Source: Ostreococcus lucimarinus (lineage: Eukaryota). From it: 64,000 nucleotides of DNA. Both the position numbers and the translations under genes were made by a program. Under the pieces are notes generated by a model, which saw only the letters and a list, made by a program, of their open reading frames with translations, did not search any database and had not been told where the DNA came from. Location of the stretch: assembly GCA_000092065.1 (NCBI GenBank), contig CP000596.1; one strand, given 5' to 3'. Below, piece after piece: positions 42,012-64,000 of this stretch. The first letter of the stretch is position 1. Every line of letters starts with the position of its first letter.

Positions 42012-42587
42012 ATGATATCACTCACGTGCAAGCATCACAAACCGCACTCGCAACAATCGCAACGCCACCGACGCTCGAAAAGCCATCGATCGCGCACTTC
42101 GCGGGCGTCGTCGTCCACCCCTGGACCGACGCCCCACAGCGACGCAACGTCTTCCGGCGAGCACTTCGGCGCGTTGAGTCACGACGAACGCGTCAGCATC
42201 TTGGGCGAAGCCATCATCGATTCTGGCGCGCTCGTGTTCACGAAGAGTCACAGTGGAAGGTACACGTGCGTTGACAATGCGTTTCTCAAAGCGTTTGGGT
42301 TCGAAAAGTCCGAAGATGTCGTCGGACTCACCGACGACGAGGTGATCGAGAAGATTCTTGCGAGCGGGAAAACATTTCACCACTCGTACCGAGGCGAGTC
42401 GGTGACCGATCTTCCGCGAATTTGGAAAGAGAACGACGATCTCGTGCAGCACAACAACCGAACGATGTGGTTCAAGGAGCGCGCGTTGTTGAGCGGTGGC
42501 GAAGACACCAAGCTTCACGAATTTGTCGTGATGAAATCGCCCTTCGCGGGTGGAGTCCTCGGCGTCGCGGTGCCCGCTGGAATTTGA
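42012..42587 (+). CDS. Small PAS-domain protein; N-terminus uncertain.
   Basis: PAS-fold pattern (ILGEAIIDSGALVFTKSHSGRYTCVDNAFLKAFGFEKSEDVVGLTDDEV...NRTMWFKERALL). The first ATG lies only 24 bp after the Roadblock stop, so the gene structure is uncertain. Confidence 0.45.
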   Translation: MISLTCKHHKPHSQQSQRHRRSKSHRSRTSRASSSTPGPTPHSDATSSGEHFGALSHDERVSILGEAIIDSGALVFTKSHSGRYTCVDNAFLKAFGFEKSEDVVGLTDDEVIEKILASGKTFHHSYRGESVTDLPRIWKENDDLVQHNNRTMWFKERALLSGGEDTKLHEFVVMKSPFAGGVLGVAVPAGI

Positions 42588-42886: not shown

Positions 42887-43468
42887 CTAGTCCCCGCGAA
42901 TCGCGCGCACGCTCGCCTCAAGCGCGTACAACTCTTCGTCTTCGATACCTAACCCCCGCAAAGCCTCGCACAGGTTGTATAAATATTCGGAATTTTCTCC
43001 AGACGGACCGCGCGCTGCAGCGATTTGCTCGGCTACATCGCTCGCGTCTCCGAGCCAGTTCAAGTTAGTCGTCGCCGGCGTCGCGATATACGTTACCGCG
43101 TTTCTTATCACCGGCACCGCGTTCGCGTCATCGACGTCGTATAAATCCATCTCAATCCTCTCGTCGTACTGTTTTTCTCGTATTTCCAGGTTCTCCAGCA
43201 CCGCCTCTCGGTCCTCTGCGCGAACTTCGTACGCGACGCCCCAGCACGCGACGTCCTCCGAGCAACGCTCTAACGTCGCCGTGCGCCCGGGCGCCGCGGG
43301 CGTTCCTCGATGGTCGGTGCTTCCTTGATAAAACCGTCGCCGAAACCCTCGCGCGCACACGGGCGCGATCGAGCGCGCGTACTCGAAGCCCGTGCGCCAC
43401 ACTATCGAACCGTATCCGAAGACCCATAACGATTCGTTCGCGCGCGTCGACAGCGGCGCGCGAGGCAT
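42887..43468 (-). CDS. CHAC: ChaC-family gamma-glutamyl cyclotransferase (glutathione-specific).
   Basis: Only the C-terminal 193 codons of the 561-aa ORF are genic: MPRAPLSTRANESLWVFGYGSIVWRTGF (ChaC signature LWVFGYGSLMW) ...YLYNLCEALRGLG. The rest of that ORF is antisense to the neighbouring rpiA-like gene. Confidence 0.8.
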   Translation of the reverse strand: MPRAPLSTRANESLWVFGYGSIVWRTGFEYARSIAPVCARGFRRRFYQGSTDHRGTPAAPGRTATLERCSEDVACWGVAYEVRAEDREAVLENLEIREKQYDERIEMDLYDVDDANAVPVIRNAVTYIATPATTNLNWLGDASDVAEQIAAARGPSGENSEYLYNLCEALRGLGIEDEELYALEASVRAIRGD

Positions 43469-43628
43469 GATGCCCACGTCGTGGTCTCGCGGCACGCGTT
43501 TCGCGCTCGAGCTCGCGCTGGCGACAGATCGGGCGCGATGCGCGTTCGACGCGCGCATCGCGAGCGAAGAAGCGAGGCGAACACTGGCGCGGCAGACGAC
43601 GACGCGTCGACGCTCGGCCACGCTCGCG

Positions 43629-44645
43629 ATGGCGCGCGCGACGGCGACGGCGCGCGCGACGGCGACGCGGAACGGCGCGCCGCGCGTCGTCGCGCGCGCG
43701 CGAGCGACGGCGCGCGCGGGCGCGGTGACGCGGCGCGCGAACGACGCTCGGGCGGCGAGGGCGGCGACGCTGAGGACGCGCGCGCGACGCGAGCGAACGC
43801 GCGCGCGCGCGAGCGACGCGCGCGTGGATGAATCCGACGATAGCTTCGCGTCCGCGAGCCTGTCGGCGGCGATCGCGCAGCGGGCGCTGATGATGATCGA
43901 ATCCAACGCCGTCGTGGGGTTGTCGCGGGGCGAACACGCGAGCGAGCTGGCGCGACGGTTGGCGGAGGCGCTGGAAAGCGGTGCGCTGGAGAACGTGAAA
44001 GTGGTGGCGCTCGAACCGTTGGCGGCGAAGGAATGCGCGGTGAACGGGCTAGAGATGCGATCGATCGATGAGGTGCGAGCGATCGACGTGACGTTCGCGC
44101 AGCCGAGCGAGTGCGCGGTGGTGGTGACGAACGGGCAGAAATCCATCGCGAGCGTGTTCGGACGAGAGACGACGCCGGTACAACCAGATATCGAACGCGC
44201 GAAGGCGGCAATGAAAAAGAGCGTCAAGGTGGTGCTGTTGAAGGAGCTTTTCGTGGATAAGATTGGCGGGTCCATCCCCATCGTTGTCGAGGCGGAAAAT
44301 TGGGAAGAACACGCGGAGGAGTTGGATGATTTATTTTTGGGCGACGCCGAGGTGTGGAGGCGAGGTGCGACGTTTGACGCGAACCCAAGAGGAGGGAAGA
44401 ACCCGTACGTCAGCGCCGACGGCTCGCACACGCTGTTAGACTTGCGATTTGAAGATCCCATCAACAGCGGTCGCTGGGAGTGCGGTTTGATGCTCGACGG
44501 CAAACCGTGCGGGCCGTACGAGTTACAATACGCGTTGGAAAACGATGTCGAAGGCGTGTTGGCGCATGGCATCTACACCCAAGCCGATGTCGTGATAACG
44601 TTGAATCCGGACACGTTAGAAGCGGTGACGATCGAACGCGATTAA
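43629..44645 (+). CDS. Ribose-5-phosphate isomerase A-like protein with substituted active-site/phosphate-binding motifs and a plastid-type presequence.
   Basis: RpiA-like fold. The C-terminus TFDANPRGGKNPYVSADGSHTLLDLRFEDPI...GVLAHGIYTQADVVI resembles RpiA ...PFVTDNGNYILDCHF..IEDP...GVVETGLF...ADVVIV. The canonical GLGTGST loop reads GLSRGEHAS. The DGADE region reads DVTFAQPSE. Confidence 0.6.
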   Translation: MARATATARATATRNGAPRVVARARATARAGAVTRRANDARAARAATLRTRARRERTRARASDARVDESDDSFASASLSAAIAQRALMMIESNAVVGLSRGEHASELARRLAEALESGALENVKVVALEPLAAKECAVNGLEMRSIDEVRAIDVTFAQPSECAVVVTNGQKSIASVFGRETTPVQPDIERAKAAMKKSVKVVLLKELFVDKIGGSIPIVVEAENWEEHAEELDDLFLGDAEVWRRGATFDANPRGGKNPYVSADGSHTLLDLRFEDPINSGRWECGLMLDGKPCGPYELQYALENDVEGVLAHGIYTQADVVITLNPDTLEAVTIERD

Positions 44646-58194: not shown

Positions 58195-60297
58195 ATGGAT
58201 GTCGTCGCGGTGTTGCGCGCGTCCGCGTCACACCGCCGCGTTCGAGCGCCGCGTCGCGCGCGTCGTCGTCGCAGACGTCGTCGTCGTCGTCGCATGCCGT
58301 GGCGCGCCGGCGCGCCGCGGTGCTTCGGCCGCCGCGCGCGCGCGTCGTCGAGAGATATCTTCGGCGATGTCGACGCGAACGGGACGTCGCGCAAATCGTC
58401 GACGTCGACGTCGACGGGATCGGGGGGAACGGTGATCGTGTACGGGCTCAGCGCGGATCCACCGACGGACGTCGGCGGCCACGGGAGCGTGGTGCGGGCG
58501 TTACGGGCGTGCGAAGGCGTGGACGAGGTGCGCGTGACGCCGGTGTACGCGCACGCGTACGCGGAGAAGAGACTCGCGACGACGTCGTACGAGGCGCGAG
58601 TGGAGATGTGCGCGCTGGCGTTCGAGGGAGCGGTGATGGACAGCGACGCTGACGTCGGTAAACACGCGACGCTGGCGCCCGCGGGATCGAGAGGCGTCTC
58701 CGCGAGCGACGACGACGCGGGCGAGACGAGCGCGGCGGGGACGAAGGCGGCGCGCTTGGTCGTGTCTCGGGCAGAATACAGAGCTTCGCTCGAGCACAGA
58801 GGAGGCTTGGCGAACACCAAACCTGGATCCACGGCGGCATTGATGGACGTGCTTCGGCGCGAGCAACCGGATACGACTTTCATTATTTGCGTCGGCGAGG
58901 ACGCGTTTGACGATTTAATCAGCGGGAAGTGGTTCAGAGGTGAAGACTTGTTGCGCGACTACGCGTTCATTGTCGCACCACGACACGGATATGAATCGCG
59001 TCGTGAGCGAAATTTTGGCGCGAGTGGACACGTCACGCGAGACATTCGCAGCGTCTCCTGGTTGGAGGCGCACGTCACCGCGCCGGCGGGCGCGCCGGTG
59101 TCCTCGACCATGATTCGACGCGCGTTAGAGCAGAGGCAAGAGTGCGAGACTGCGGAGCAATTGTTGCAAGATTGCGCTCCCACTCGAGCGCTTCATCCCG
59201 ACGTTTTGCAGTACATCGTCGACAAAGAGCTCTACGTCGCCGATGAGTTCCAAGACGCCGTCGGCGACGACCTGGACTCAGATGCGGACGCCGACGCGCC
59301 GTCCACGCCGACGAAAGATTTGGGGTATTTAGGTCGAAAGTTTGCGGGCATGACAACGGAGCCGAGTGCGTATTTTAGCCGAGACAAGTCGTTCACCGAC
59401 GCAAAGGACAGGCACGGCTTGCTCACCGAATCGCGCCCGCTCATCGGCAAGGAAGTCGACGTACACGAGCACATCAAAGCCGCGGTTCCTCGCGACGAAT
59501 TTACGTCGTTCAAGGCGTTGCCGTACGAGCTCTTCGATCGCGCGATACGCACCGAGCTTCAGAACCATCCGCCCGGCAAATGGAATGCTGATAAAGCAAA
59601 AAAGTACGCGTTCATGTCGGCGGAACGCGTGCGCGTCGTGTTGCAGTGGCGCAAGGACAACAAGGTTGACGAATTGCTCACTGGTGGCATATTGCCATAT
59701 TCAGACTGCATGTACACGAATTGGCCCGCGTTCGTGCACGGTCAAGACTCGTACGGACACCCCGTGTTGTGTGAGCATCCGAGCGCCGTGAAGCCAGACG
59801 CTTTGAAGGCGCGCATGACCGTCGACGAAATAATGCGGCACAGGATTCAAGTGATGGAGACGTTGGAGTTCATGAAATCGACCTCCCAGCGCGCGCACAC
59901 GGTCTACAAGCACATCTGCGTGATTGACTTGGAAGGGGTCACGATGTCGCTGTTCACGGGTGACGTGAAATCGTTTCTGACCGAGTTTGTCAAGCTTTTG
60001 ACGCATCGCTACACCGATTCGTTGCACCTGATGTATCTCGTGAACACGCCGGTGGTCTTCCGCGTCATGTGGGCGATGCTAATGCCGTTACTGTCGACGA
60101 CGACAAAGTCGAAAATTTTCATGTTTGGCGTAGGACCCAACCAAAGTAAGAAACTCGCAAAGCAGCTCGCACGACACGGGATAGGGCAGGAATGCGTTCC
60201 GCCGTGCGCGGGTGGAACGCACAAAGGAACGAGGATGGACGAATACATTCGAGAAGCTGTTACGCTGCACAAGCGTTTGAACGAGCACGTCAAGTAG
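58195..60297 (+). CDS. Single 700-aa ORF: NadD-like nicotinate/nicotinamide mononucleotide adenylyltransferase domain fused to a C-terminal CRAL-TRIO (Sec14-like) lipid-binding domain.
   Basis: The N-terminal half has a nucleotidyltransferase signature region (IVYGLSADPPTDVGGH) and the NadD C-terminal motif SSTMIRRAL...LQYIVDKELY. An acidic linker of about 70 aa follows. Then a CRAL-TRIO N-domain (KALPYELFDRAIRTEL...KAKKYAFMSAERVRVVLQWRKDNKVDELL) and a lipid-binding domain. There is no in-frame stop between the halves. Confidence 0.65.
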   Translation: MDVVAVLRASASHRRVRAPRRARRRRRRRRRRRMPWRAGAPRCFGRRARASSRDIFGDVDANGTSRKSSTSTSTGSGGTVIVYGLSADPPTDVGGHGSVVRALRACEGVDEVRVTPVYAHAYAEKRLATTSYEARVEMCALAFEGAVMDSDADVGKHATLAPAGSRGVSASDDDAGETSAAGTKAARLVVSRAEYRASLEHRGGLANTKPGSTAALMDVLRREQPDTTFIICVGEDAFDDLISGKWFRGEDLLRDYAFIVAPRHGYESRRERNFGASGHVTRDIRSVSWLEAHVTAPAGAPVSSTMIRRALEQRQECETAEQLLQDCAPTRALHPDVLQYIVDKELYVADEFQDAVGDDLDSDADADAPSTPTKDLGYLGRKFAGMTTEPSAYFSRDKSFTDAKDRHGLLTESRPLIGKEVDVHEHIKAAVPRDEFTSFKALPYELFDRAIRTELQNHPPGKWNADKAKKYAFMSAERVRVVLQWRKDNKVDELLTGGILPYSDCMYTNWPAFVHGQDSYGHPVLCEHPSAVKPDALKARMTVDEIMRHRIQVMETLEFMKSTSQRAHTVYKHICVIDLEGVTMSLFTGDVKSFLTEFVKLLTHRYTDSLHLMYLVNTPVVFRVMWAMLMPLLSTTTKSKIFMFGVGPNQSKKLAKQLARHGIGQECVPPCAGGTHKGTRMDEYIREAVTLHKRLNEHVK

Positions 60298-60391: not shown

Positions 60392-61588
60392 CTATGTTCC
60401 TATTCGCCTACGCACTAAATCGGGACCGCGAGCGCGCAATTCGTGTACGTCCTTCACGCCGAGCAAACCCATCGCGCGTTTCGTCTCGCTCGTGAGTATT
60501 TCAAACGCTTTGTTTACGCCCGCGCCTTCGCCCGCGGCGAGACCGTACAAGTACGCCTTACCCACCCCCACGGCATTCGCTCCGAGAGCGAGAGCCTTGA
60601 CGACATCGACGCCACGCATGATGCCACCGTCGTAAATCACCTCCGCTTCCTCGCCGACGGCTTCGCGGATGGACGACAAGACGTCAATGGGCGCGACGGC
60701 GCTCTCCAACTGTCGAGCGCCGTGCGACGTCACCCACACCGCGTCGTACCCAATATCTCGAGCGCGCACCGCGTCGTCGGGACGCAGAATCCCTTTCATC
60801 GCCATCGGACCATCCCACTGCGCGCGAAACCACTCGGCGTCTTTCCAATCAAACGCAGCGTCGAACTGTTTTGTCGCAAATTCTGCGATTGGCAGCGCGT
60901 CTCTGAGCAAACCGTCGCGCTTCAAATCGCGAATGAGCGCGTACTCGATGCGCTGTGATATGAGATATTCAAGCGTCCACCTCGGCGCCGCGAGAGCTGC
61001 GAGAGTTGTCCGTAAAGAGTGTTTGGGCGGTACACTGAATGAGTTTCGCACGTCTCGCTCCCGATTTCCGAACCACGTCAAGTCCGTCGTCAACGCGACT
61101 GACGAGAATCCAGCCTCCTTGGCGCTCGCCAAGACGTCTCGCATCAGCTCTCGATCTTTCCACACGTACACCTGGAACATTTTCCGATCGGCTTTCAACG
61201 TCGCGACGCCCTCCGCGATGTCTCGCGGAGAGCGGGTGCCGAGAGTGCTCAACGCAAATACTCTGTTGCTCGTCGAGCACGCCTCGGCGGTCGCCAACTC
61301 GCCGCGCCGCGGTGCCCATAACGCGTGACCGGCGGTCGGCGATGGGAAAATGCACTCCGTGTTCGTGTGTCCTAAAAACGACGTCTCGAGCGACACGTCG
61401 TCGACGCCGCGACACGTCGACGGGTGAAACTCTAATTCATCGAACGCCGCGCTCGCGCGACGCAGCGCCTTCTCATCGTCCGCACCGCCATCTAAATAGT
61501 CGAACGCGAACGAAGGTTGGACCTTGCGCGCGAGCGCGCGCAAGTCTCGCGCGTTCAAGCACGCGCGCAGCGCTTTGGACGACGCCAT
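60392..61588 (-). CDS. GOX: FMN-dependent (S)-2-hydroxy-acid oxidase/dehydrogenase (glycolate oxidase / L-lactate dehydrogenase LldD family).
   Basis: FAFDYLDGGADDE substrate-entry motif, catalytic TSHGARQLE (SNHGARQLD) and the C-terminal GANAVGVGKAYLYGLA. Start at MASSKAL (61588). The ORF extends to 61909. Confidence 0.85.
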   Translation of the reverse strand: MASSKALRACLNARDLRALARKVQPSFAFDYLDGGADDEKALRRASAAFDELEFHPSTCRGVDDVSLETSFLGHTNTECIFPSPTAGHALWAPRRGELATAEACSTSNRVFALSTLGTRSPRDIAEGVATLKADRKMFQVYVWKDRELMRDVLASAKEAGFSSVALTTDLTWFGNRERDVRNSFSVPPKHSLRTTLAALAAPRWTLEYLISQRIEYALIRDLKRDGLLRDALPIAEFATKQFDAAFDWKDAEWFRAQWDGPMAMKGILRPDDAVRARDIGYDAVWVTSHGARQLESAVAPIDVLSSIREAVGEEAEVIYDGGIMRGVDVVKALALGANAVGVGKAYLYGLAAGEGAGVNKAFEILTSETKRAMGLLGVKDVHELRARGPDLVRRRIGT

Positions 61589-61632
61589 GCGACGGCGTGT
61601 GTCGCCAGTGTTCGCCTCGCTTCGAGCGACGC

Positions 61633-63564
61633 ATGCGCGCCGACGCCCGCGACGCCGGCGACGACGACGCGTCGGCGACGTCTTCCAAAGGTGCGGGGGG
61701 CGAACTCGAGCTCGATGGCGCGGGAGGAGCACTGGAAGACTTGAGAACGAAGCTGCACGAGGCCGAACGCGCGGCGCGCGAGAGCGAGCTCGTGGCTCGG
61801 TCGAAGGTTTCAAAGGCGTTCGAGCGGTTGAAGGACGCCGACGCCGCGGCGAACGAGGAACGCGAGCGAGCGGCAAAGCTCGAGCGCGAGCTCGAGCGAG
61901 TGAAGGCATCGTGCGAAGAAACGAGCGAAGCGCTTCAAGCGGCGAACATAAAGGTGAGCGTACTCACCGCTCAAGTCGCGGCTCTCGCCGACGAACCGAC
62001 GTCGCCGTCCAACGCCAAGGCGAAGAAAGGAAAGGCCAAGACAAAGTCGAAGCCTTCAGACGCGACTGTTGATGTGGCGATGGTGAATTCAATGCTCACC
62101 TCGGCGAATGAAAAGCTGAAGCACGAAACCGAAGCGCACGAAGCGTCAAAGCGCGCGACGGCGTCGCTCGAAGAAGAAATCAAGCGTCTGAAACCGCTCG
62201 CGCAGATGACGGAGACGATGAGAGCAGATCTTACGTGTGCAGTCGCGGAAGCGAATGAGGCGAAATCAAACGCTGAAAATTGGAAAAAGCTGGTAGACTC
62301 TAAAGAACAATCGTCGGGTGTGAACGAAAGAAAGCTTCGCGAGGCGTTGACGCGACTCAACACGGAATTGCACGAGGCGAAGGAAAAAGTTCGCGCGCTC
62401 GAAGTCGCCAACGAAGACGCTATGCGCACCGGCACGATGTTGCAGCAGCAAGCCGTGGAAGCTGGCGAGCGCATCACTCGAAGTCTCCGAAGTCGTCTCG
62501 ACGAGGTAAACGATGAAATGAGCGAACTGAAGAGGAGAGAAGCCGTAGCCGCGGCTGAAGGCCACGCGGCGTCCGAGGCGATTCGCCGAGCCGCAAAATT
62601 TGAAGAGGAACTCAAGCGTGCGAAACATCGCCTCGCGGACGCAGAAATGGCTCTCGTAGACAGTGAGTCAGCTGTCAAGGCGTTACAGTTTCAGCTCGAT
62701 TTGAGCGGAGAATCCACGTATCGCGACGACTCGAGCGTGCGACGCGAAACGCGTTTGCGAAACGAGCTCGAGGAGACGATCGCTCACGCCGCAAAATCGA
62801 GCGCTGAGATTGAACGCCTCGGCGATATCGTTAAAAAGTTAGATGACGAGCTCACGACGGCTCGCGAAGTCGTAAAACGGCTCACTGAAGAAAACAACTC
62901 GCTCATCAATCGCGTCGACGCGGCGGAAAAGAAGAACGAGATTCATTCCCTCCTCGGCGCGACGAGCGCGAAGCACGAAGACTTGGAATTGCTCCAAACG
63001 ACGGCGAGTAAAGTGGACTTGATCGTGGCTGAAAATCAGCGATTAGCGTCTGAATGTAAGGCGGCGCACACCGCGCTGAAGACCGCAGAGGACACGGCGA
63101 GGACGGCGAAGTCGGCGCTGGCGAGCGAACGCGAAGAATTCGAAGTGTGGAGGCGCAAGGCGAGGGAAATAATCGATTCCAAAGACCGCGAGATTGATCG
63201 TATACGCGCCCGCGGAGATGATAAGCAACCGCCTCCCAAGTCGACGCCGACAGCAATGCTCAAGCGCAAAGGCGGCGCCGAGGACGACGCTTCGTACATC
63301 AAGGCGGTGTTACTGCAATTCCTCGGCGAAGAGGAATGGGAGGTGCAGCAAAACTTGCTCCCCACCGTTATCGCGCTGTGTGGCGGTACATCGGAAGATT
63401 TGCGGAAAATTCAAGCGAATCGCGCTAATTTAGAACCGACGTTCGTGCACTCGACCGAAGTAGCAATCTCGAAATCTCTGGAGCAGGGCGCGATGACTGT
63501 CGCGTCGACGGCGAATTCTTTCACCGAGAGCATCGGTTTGGGGCGATTTTTTTCGAGCGCGTGA
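61633..63564 (+). CDS. Coiled-coil golgin with a C-terminal GRIP domain.
   Basis: About 600 aa of heptad-rich coiled coil. It ends in a GRIP-domain consensus YIKAVLLQFLGEEEWEVQQNLLPTV (compare [FY]LKNVLLQF[LM]). It is the last gene before the telomere. Confidence 0.7.
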   Translation: MRADARDAGDDDASATSSKGAGGELELDGAGGALEDLRTKLHEAERAARESELVARSKVSKAFERLKDADAAANEERERAAKLERELERVKASCEETSEALQAANIKVSVLTAQVAALADEPTSPSNAKAKKGKAKTKSKPSDATVDVAMVNSMLTSANEKLKHETEAHEASKRATASLEEEIKRLKPLAQMTETMRADLTCAVAEANEAKSNAENWKKLVDSKEQSSGVNERKLREALTRLNTELHEAKEKVRALEVANEDAMRTGTMLQQQAVEAGERITRSLRSRLDEVNDEMSELKRREAVAAAEGHAASEAIRRAAKFEEELKRAKHRLADAEMALVDSESAVKALQFQLDLSGESTYRDDSSVRRETRLRNELEETIAHAAKSSAEIERLGDIVKKLDDELTTAREVVKRLTEENNSLINRVDAAEKKNEIHSLLGATSAKHEDLELLQTTASKVDLIVAENQRLASECKAAHTALKTAEDTARTAKSALASEREEFEVWRRKAREIIDSKDREIDRIRARGDDKQPPPKSTPTAMLKRKGGAEDDASYIKAVLLQFLGEEEWEVQQNLLPTVIALCGGTSEDLRKIQANRANLEPTFVHSTEVAISKSLEQGAMTVASTANSFTESIGLGRFFSSA

Positions 63565-63595
63565 CGAAACAATAGATTAGGTAGAAGATGGCAAG

Positions 63596-63750
63596 AAATA
63601 GAAGATGTAAAATGCAAAGCGACCCACACGCACGCATCGCCGTCGCCGTCCCTGGTAAACCACACGGGGATCGCAAATGCGACCGCGGGCTAAAAATAGA
63701 AGAAACAGGAATGCAAAGCGATTCACTTACGTCGCCGTCGCCGTCCCCGC
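63596..63750. repeat. Subtelomeric imperfect direct repeat: two copies of about 57 bp (AAATAGAAGA...AATGCAAAGCGA...CGCCGTCGCCGTCCC) spaced about 97 bp apart.
   Basis: Read directly: 63596..63653 and 63693..63750. Confidence 0.8.
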
Positions 63751-63803
63751 GTCGTCTCCCAGCGCGCGTCGCCGCACTCGCCTCCCTGAAAATACGGTTA
63801 GAA

Positions 63804-64000
63804 TTTAGGGTTTTGGGTTTAGGGTTTTTGGGTTTAGGGTTTAGGGTTTAGGGTTTAGGGTTTAGGGTTTAGGGTTTAGGGTTTAGGGTTTAGGGTTTAG
63901 GGTTTAGGGTTTAGGGTTTAGGGTTTAGGGTTTAGGGTTTAGGGTTTAGGGTTTAGGGTTTAGGGTTTAGGGTTTAGGGTTTAGGGTTTAGGGTTTAGGG
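63804..64000 (+). repeat. Telomere: (TTTAGGG)n running to the window end. The proximal units are degenerate (TTTTGGG, TTTTTGGG).
   Basis: About 27 perfect heptamers from about 63832 onward. The G-rich strand is 5'->3' toward the terminus, as expected for a right chromosome end. Arabidopsis-type repeat, as in green algae. Confidence 0.95.

Follow-up and report, generated by a model that had tools for sequence, protein, structure and literature searches.

The stretch of DNA analysed here, 64,000 nt from Ostreococcus lucimarinus and referred to below as the window, runs out in TTTAGGG repeats shortly after its last gene. The initial annotation took this for a true chromosome end with almost no buffer between coding sequence and telomere, and the locus thus raises two questions: is the window terminus really the end of a chromosome, and if so, how did its subtelomere come to be so small? 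We consider it quite probable that the window terminus is the right-hand end of a ~428 kb chromosome of O. lucimarinus, or of a near-identical strain, capped by (TTTAGGG)n. On this reading the end has kept the proximal part of a subtelomeric element that is shared with other chromosome ends, and has lost the distal part by terminal break or erosion followed by telomere re-addition.

The last gene and the telomere array

An FMN-dependent dehydrogenase encoded on the minus strand at 60392-61588 (398 aa) is identical to XP_001422069.1 of O. lucimarinus CCE9901, and the ~60% G+C content, intronless genes and ~100-nt intergenic gaps of the window are consistent with this species. An extended 505-aa reading frame for the dehydrogenase has no exact-protein match, and the real gene is the 398-aa version. 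The last 6 kb of the window consist of ordinary genes, namely those for a CRAL/TRIO protein, the dehydrogenase and the last gene, so that conserved genes are found right up to the end.

The last gene lies on the plus strand at 61633-63564 and encodes a 643-aa coiled-coil protein, its limits being given by the open reading frame together with gene calls in two Logan assemblies with exactly this product. It is closed by a TGA at 63562-63564, the stop codon given in the initial annotation. The longest listed frame of this gene starts upstream at 61039 and would encode 841 aa, but its first 198 codons (61039-61632) overlap the minus-strand dehydrogenase gene and calls elsewhere start at 61633; this longer version was therefore rejected. 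The earlier designation of the product as a GRIP-golgin can be kept only in a qualified form. The protein is mostly coiled coil and carries a conserved C-terminal GRIP-like motif, YIKAVLLQFL, but the Pfam GRIP family (PF01465) matches it weakly, at 21.3 bits (E=2.4e-4), which is below the 24.4-bit cut-off. Orthologues are found at 45-90% identity, one of them from O. tauri, and GRIP is matched in orthologues likewise weakly, at E<=0.01 in 8 out of 10. A PDB sequence search with the GRIP region, both as a single sequence and as a profile, returned no meaningful match. We refer to the gene below as a putative "GRIP-like golgin", which appears a reasonable name.

The pentamer TGTAA, placed earlier at about 63608, lies exactly at 63606-63610 on the plus strand, 42 nt past the golgin stop. 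TGTAA is a polyadenylation signal in other green algae. Among the long open reading frames of the window, it occurs within 150 nt downstream in 11 of 30 cases in the sense orientation as against 4 of 30 in the antisense orientation (background 0.05 per 150 nt), a bias which suggests that TGTAA may act as a poly(A) signal in this genome as well; that the copy at 63606-63610 is the candidate signal of the golgin is plausible.

The spacer from the golgin stop to the telomere measures 239 nt, close to the ~240 bp at which the gene had been said to approach an Arabidopsis-type telomere. The telomere starts with four proximal units on the plus strand at 63804-63832 (TTTAGGG, TTTTGGG, TTTAGGG and TTTTTGGG, read unit by unit) and continues as a perfect array of 24 TTTAGGG units at 63833-64000; TRF reports the whole of 63804-64000 as 28 copies of period 7. 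With two variant units among the first four and perfect units thereafter, the earlier picture of degenerate units grading into perfect (TTTAGGG)n was accurate. No second TTTAGGG dimer occurs elsewhere in the 64 kb, where 0.01 would be expected by chance, and the G-rich strand runs 5' to 3' outward, which is the orientation expected at a right-hand chromosome end. The window edge at 64000 lies inside the array, and neither the array length nor the terminal position can be read from the window alone. In the last 4 kb, TRF and a repeat search found no large subtelomeric repeat block of the Sultan or Y' type (units of hundreds of bases), TRF returning only tiny arrays, in agreement with the initial annotation.

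Other assemblies extend the view past this edge. A look-up of contigs that encode the identical dehydrogenase gave ten environmental contigs with the gene order of the window. Contigs L009-L012, of which L010 is 427,940 bp long, enter TTTAGGG arrays ~570 nt past the golgin stop, and a contig recovered in a metagenome scan (L032; the scan is described below) is also TTTAGGG-terminated past the golgin, with a spacer shorter than that of L009-L012. Once the array has begun, L010-L012 and L032 consist of the repeat only, and in L009 ~68 nt of degenerate telomere-like sequence follow the array before the contig ends. The chromosome-end interpretation is therefore well supported, both by these independent contigs, which share the gene order and likewise terminate in TTTAGGG arrays past the golgin, and by the outward direction of the G-rich strand. 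It holds for this strain and for several populations, but not for all relatives, since L003-L006 run on into further genes. Two Logan contigs from different runs (L001 and L002) match the window without a difference up to 63713, where each of them stops, near the passage from end-specific to multi-copy sequence and before the junction with the telomere is reached. Such a common stop is what one expects where an assembly graph branches at a repeat, and it says nothing on the junction itself. The O. lucimarinus genome was reportedly finished to its telomeres by Palenik et al. in 2007.

A subtelomeric element shared among chromosome ends

The 239-nt spacer is made of two layers. The inner layer is a ~90-nt 3' flank specific to this end, with the TGTAA and the first copy of a direct repeat, and the outer layer (63658-63803, plus strand) is the proximal part, ~147 nt long, of a shared element whose telomere side is truncated. 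The subtelomere is therefore as tiny as was claimed when it was called minimal, with almost no buffer, but its last ~147 nt are not anonymous sequence: they belong to a truncated element common to many ends.

The most conserved part of the element is its core, the 21-mer CCCGCGTCGTCTCCCAGCGCG at 63746-63766 on the plus strand, which is identical in every aligned copy and occurs a single time in the window. A scan of JGI metagenome contigs with this 21-mer gave 60 loci. Together with the other loci collected, these yielded 47 Ostreococcus-type copies of the element behind 19 clusters of differing upstream sequence; in most copies no more than a few hundred bases separate the element from the end of the contig, and most point outward. 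Homologous sequence is thus found at many extremities in environmental Ostreococcus contigs from marine metagenomes.

In alignment A1, the homology of the window to other ends starts at AACCACACGGGG. The proximal part of the element reads, in order, AACCACACGGGGATCGCAAA… (63658 in the window), AATGCAAAGCGATTCAC…TCGCCGTCGTCGT, the core 21-mer and …CCTCCCTGAAA, and the distal part is composed of three to five telomere-like units, CTAGGGTTAGAAA, and a ~330-nt module (CAGTGTCTCTGGAACATGACGC … GGGCGTAGGCCGCGGTTTGGG … AAACTAGGGTTTGGAGGACTAGGGTTC), after which the telomere begins. The full-length element is ~500 nt long, with 387-414 nt from core to telomere in nine full-length ends. The window matches the element over 63658-63791 and then reads ATACGGTTAGAA followed directly by TTTAGGG TTTTGGG…, the ~330-nt distal module being absent. 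The segment ATACGGTTAGAA (63792-63803, plus strand; columns 248-276 of A1) is the remnant of the first telomere-like unit of 13-14 nt, which is CTAGGGTTAGAA in full-length copies, and the shared part abuts the first telomere unit at 63804 without any intervening sequence. An Rfam search with the window tail and one full-length element found no credible RNA family; its sole match, to a bacterial sRNA at E=0.21, was dismissed.

The two 57-bp direct repeats described earlier are both there, but they are imperfect and of slightly different length. Copy 1 (63 nt, 63590-63652) and copy 2 (60 nt, 63688-63747), both on the plus strand, can be aligned locally with 49 of 64 columns identical and three small indels. 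The score of this alignment is 31, as against 9.5 +/- 1.8 with a maximum of 19 in 500 shuffles, which rules out a chance match. When other chromosome ends are compared for the repeat, as the initial annotation had proposed, copy 2 is recovered within the element common to many ends (alignment A1), but copy 1 is specific to this end, where it is unchanged in all assemblies. Copy 1 looks like an older, incomplete fossil of the element's proximal part, one that would have been truncated at an earlier time.

Probable loss of the distal module and re-addition of the telomere

Longer alleles exist at the very same end. The full element with its distal module is present there in L009-L012, L058 and L067, and the ~330-nt module found in L010 and L011 is missing from the window, where the telomere is joined directly: the core lies 58 nt from the first telomere unit and 87 nt from the perfect array. 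One altered telomere-like unit is kept, and the window telomere begins where full-length copies have the ACTAGGG of their second 14-nt unit. Relative to the consensus, the remnant unit has C changed to A at 63792 and G changed to C at 63795, and the ACTAGGG of the second unit reads TTTAGGG. Because of these two private substitutions, and because ACTAGGG reads TTTAGGG, the exact break point is ambiguous between 63803 and 63811. The ACTAGGG position is compatible with a seed for telomere addition at the window junction, two base changes being needed.

Other truncations have occurred independently. L032 shares its allele of copy 2 (TTCACTTACG...GCCGTCCCC) with the window but has a different junction, in which …AAAGGGGTCA is followed by TTTAGGG; its remnant of the element is longer than that of the window, and the junction shows no obvious telomere-like seed. 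At another end, L049 passes from …CCTGAACTAGGG into TTTAGGG by a seamless transition from CTAGGG to TTTAGGG, and at yet another, L050 has a seamless junction after the third unit (...CTAGGGTTAG, then GG TTTAGGG). Truncation on the telomere side, in variable phase, is thus seen in the window, L032, L049 and L050, as against nine full-length copies. Three of these four junctions fall within the block of telomere-like units, which occupies ~40-70 nt of roughly 390 nt (~13%). With n=4 truncations, this is only a hint that the telomere-like units may favour telomere re-addition.

We infer that the direction of change at this end was a deletion rather than a gain. A terminal break or erosion would have removed ~330-400 nt, and telomerase would then have added new repeats at the CTAGGG/TTAG motifs within the first units or immediately beside them (63803-63811), with a few variant repeats left at the junction after the addition; the telomere-like units would in this process have served as seeds. 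An excess of mutations has been described within 1 kb of Mamiellophyceae telomeres (PMC5455958), and the variant units at the base of the array fit with this excess, as do both private substitutions of the remnant.

The reverse order of events, in which the short form is the older and the long forms arose later as the distal module was copied from another end (by gene conversion or break-induced replication, either of them primed by the proximal part that the ends share), appears unlikely to us. The element is common to many ends and kept similar, which implies exchange between ends, and L005 and L007 carry sequence of other ends attached at this very spot. Nevertheless, a diverged full-length homologue of ~590 nt with the same terminal motif, …AAACTAGGGTTTGGAGGACTAGGGTTC, is present in an 88%-identical relative (L074 and L075), so that the long form is older than the short form of the window and predates the split. 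In addition, the fragment of the first 14-nt unit in the window is easier to explain as a remnant, and L032, which has the window's allele, retains a longer one. As a separate observation on this relative, L074 contains, ~590-1055 nt after the golgin stop, a ~120-nt TTTAGGG array and then, separated from it by ~370 nt of other sequence, a second such array that fills the contig to its end; its sister contig L075 terminates in the first array.

It is very unlikely, in our estimation, that the short subtelomere is an artefact of assembly, the real end being full-length and its 14-nt telomere-like units having been collapsed onto the telomere. The junction does lie exactly in telomere-like repeat, where mis-joins are easiest; it is reproduced by no independent contig, being absent in its exact form from all other assemblies compared; and the stop of the two window-identical short-read assemblies at 63713 falls short of it. 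A protein look-up with the 87-aa open reading frame that spans the junction (63588-63851) returned no record of the same junction elsewhere. However, the window has variant units of its own (TTTTGGG and TTTTTGGG) along with the two private substitutions, which a simple collapse would not produce, and comparable truncated junctions are present in three independent assemblies from other samples as well as published for this genome (PMC8287924).

Least probable of all is that the array is interstitial or sub-terminal, with the chromosome continuing beyond 64000, perhaps by some hundreds of bases that lead to another array: the window edge does fall within the array, the two arrays of L074 are separated by other sequence, and in L006 a fossil telomere (…GGACTAGGGTTAGGGTTTGGGTTTAGGGTTTTCATTCG…) is succeeded by 660 nt of different sequence, but pure TTTAGGG continues from array start to contig end in twelve contigs, four of them from this same end, none of the fossil arrays seen is as long or as pure as the 24 perfect units of the window, the G-rich strand is oriented as at a terminus, and O. 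lucimarinus ends have been analysed as telomere-terminated (PMC8287924).

Variation and history of the end

In a number of other assemblies the sequence departs from that of the window within these same 240 nt, and further structures are seen. In L005, a long-read contig, copies 1 and 2 of the direct repeat are merged into a single hybrid copy at the common TCGCCGTCGCCGTCCC; past this copy and distal to the golgin, ~6.3 kb (L005:1-6450) match another chromosome end (L056, L033), and then a telomere follows. L007 contains the core with its flanking sequence (roughly 63710-63770) twice, and beyond the second core lies sequence matching yet another end. Three assemblies at k=141 (L003, L004 and L006) leave the window sequence at 63706 and run into further genes. 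In L003 and L004 (1-8025), these extra distal genes encode a 2OG-Fe(II) oxygenase-like protein, an 831-aa protein, a peptidase M16 and an aldose epimerase. A chimera is unlikely as the cause of the continuations in L003, L004 and L006 at k=141, with only 143 nt shared.

On the reverse strand of L006, ~1040-1100 nt past the golgin stop, the end of a distal module and three telomere-like units (…GGACTAGGGTTAGGGTTTGGGTTTAGGGTTTTC…) precede 660 nt of non-telomeric sequence; this block of units is a fossil chromosome end or telomere inside the contig. A 427-kb JGI contig, L008, departs from the window at 63677, and its first 852 nt (L008:1-852) are an inverted copy of 59259-60000 in the window, part of the CRAL/TRIO gene, so that its continuation is probably a fold-back assembly artefact. 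In L022 (12929-13080), the core of another end is joined to the 3' coding part of the golgin (from 63347 of the window onward, 119 of 120 positions identical), which means either that the golgin 3' end and subtelomere were duplicated onto another end or that the contig is chimeric. The states seen at this locus are full-length; truncated and healed; extended with extra genes; and layered with fossil elements or telomeres. If these structures are real, the end would be polymorphic in natural populations, with the proximal element as the point of exchange.

The gene next to the telomere also has a history of its own. The orthologue of the golgin has an internal position in O. tauri (KZ155790.1, L073) and in a third lineage (L076), whose golgin is 51-57% identical to the O. 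tauri and window proteins alike. In both L073 and L076 the order of genes is ribose-5-phosphate-isomerase-like, golgin, a 178-aa gene, DUF819, ribosomal L27A, RETICULATA-like and ribosomal S8e. In the window, these neighbours of the golgin are adjacent to one another (43878-44642 and 42153-42581 down to 35569), and the golgin itself is found 17 kb from them, at the chromosome end and in the opposite relative orientation. The slot that it occupies elsewhere is filled in the window by a ChaC-like gene (43226-43595). In the 88%-identical relative (L075), the adjacency of isomerase and golgin is intact and the telomere comes next after the golgin. The break in synteny falls within ~90 nt of the golgin stop codon. 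There is an accepted phylogeny of Ostreococcus by which the position of the golgin can be polarized; given this phylogeny and the internal orthologues in O. tauri and L076, the telomere-adjacent position is the derived one. We therefore suspect, from the gene orders compared, that this end is an evolutionary breakpoint and that the golgin may have become telomere-adjacent in the O. lucimarinus lineage by a lineage-specific rearrangement, for which two nested inversions could account.

Much of this picture agrees with what has been published on the chromosome ends of green algae. The telomere repeat of Ostreococcus is TTTAGGG (PMC3318450), and the window does not differ in its repeat from an Arabidopsis-type plant telomere, which likewise has proximal variant units grading into a perfect array. 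O. lucimarinus has been described as lacking subtelomeric repeat arrays and as having shared sequences placed directly against the telomere, of Type-I (up to 411 nt, 21 ends) and Type-II (up to 844 nt, 15 ends), with truncations "in various phases" (PMC8287924; Chaux-Jukic et al. 2021, Nucleic Acids Res.). With the same organism, no arrays and a short shared sequence at the telomere, the segment at 63658-63803 behaves like a truncated copy of such a sequence; that it is of Type-I rather than Type-II is a guess from length only (387-414 nt from core to telomere, ~500 nt overall). The finding as stated, that of TTTAGGG ends with a short, shared and sometimes truncated subtelomere, is thus essentially already known for O. 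lucimarinus. The published work analysed one O. lucimarinus genome assembly, whereas here one end is compared across natural populations, and the population polymorphism of this end, the apparent clustering of truncations in the telomere-like units and the derived position of the golgin would, if borne out at the level of reads, be modest additions, the first and the last of them possibly new.

In Chlamydomonas reinhardtii, a telomere-like seed in each subtelomeric unit has been proposed to prime healing after fork collapse, in connection with variable terminal deletions and seamless junctions (PMC8287924). The seed logic of these Sultan arrays is the same as that of the passage from CTAGGG to TTTAGGG in L049, L050 and probably the window. 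The architecture is different: in C. reinhardtii the units are large and stand in long tandem arrays, and the telomere is of TTTTAGGG, whereas here three to five seed-like units of 13-14 nt lie in a subtelomere of ~0.5 kb. Terminal loss has also been seen in O. mediterraneus, where a small outlier chromosome undergoes terminal deletions and the resulting assemblies are again telomere-to-telomere (PMC13390643). That case is likewise one of terminal loss in Ostreococcus with telomere-to-telomere assembly, but the deletions amount to 145-470 kb, involve virus resistance and affect a special chromosome, whereas ~0.33 kb of non-coding sequence on an ordinary chromosome is concerned here.

One tentative possibility, which we hold to be less likely true than false, is that the short Ostreococcus subtelomere is a renewable cap. 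Its three to five internal units (CTAGGGTTAGAAA) would be preferred sites for re-seeding by telomerase, its proximal part would offer the homology for copying from other ends, and a single end would cycle between states. Taken at face value, the contigs compared show one chromosome end in no fewer than five structural states in the wild. In a genome so nearly free of repeats the locus is simple to assay and, if confirmed with long reads, it could provide a compact natural system for the study of telomere healing and of exchange between chromosome ends.
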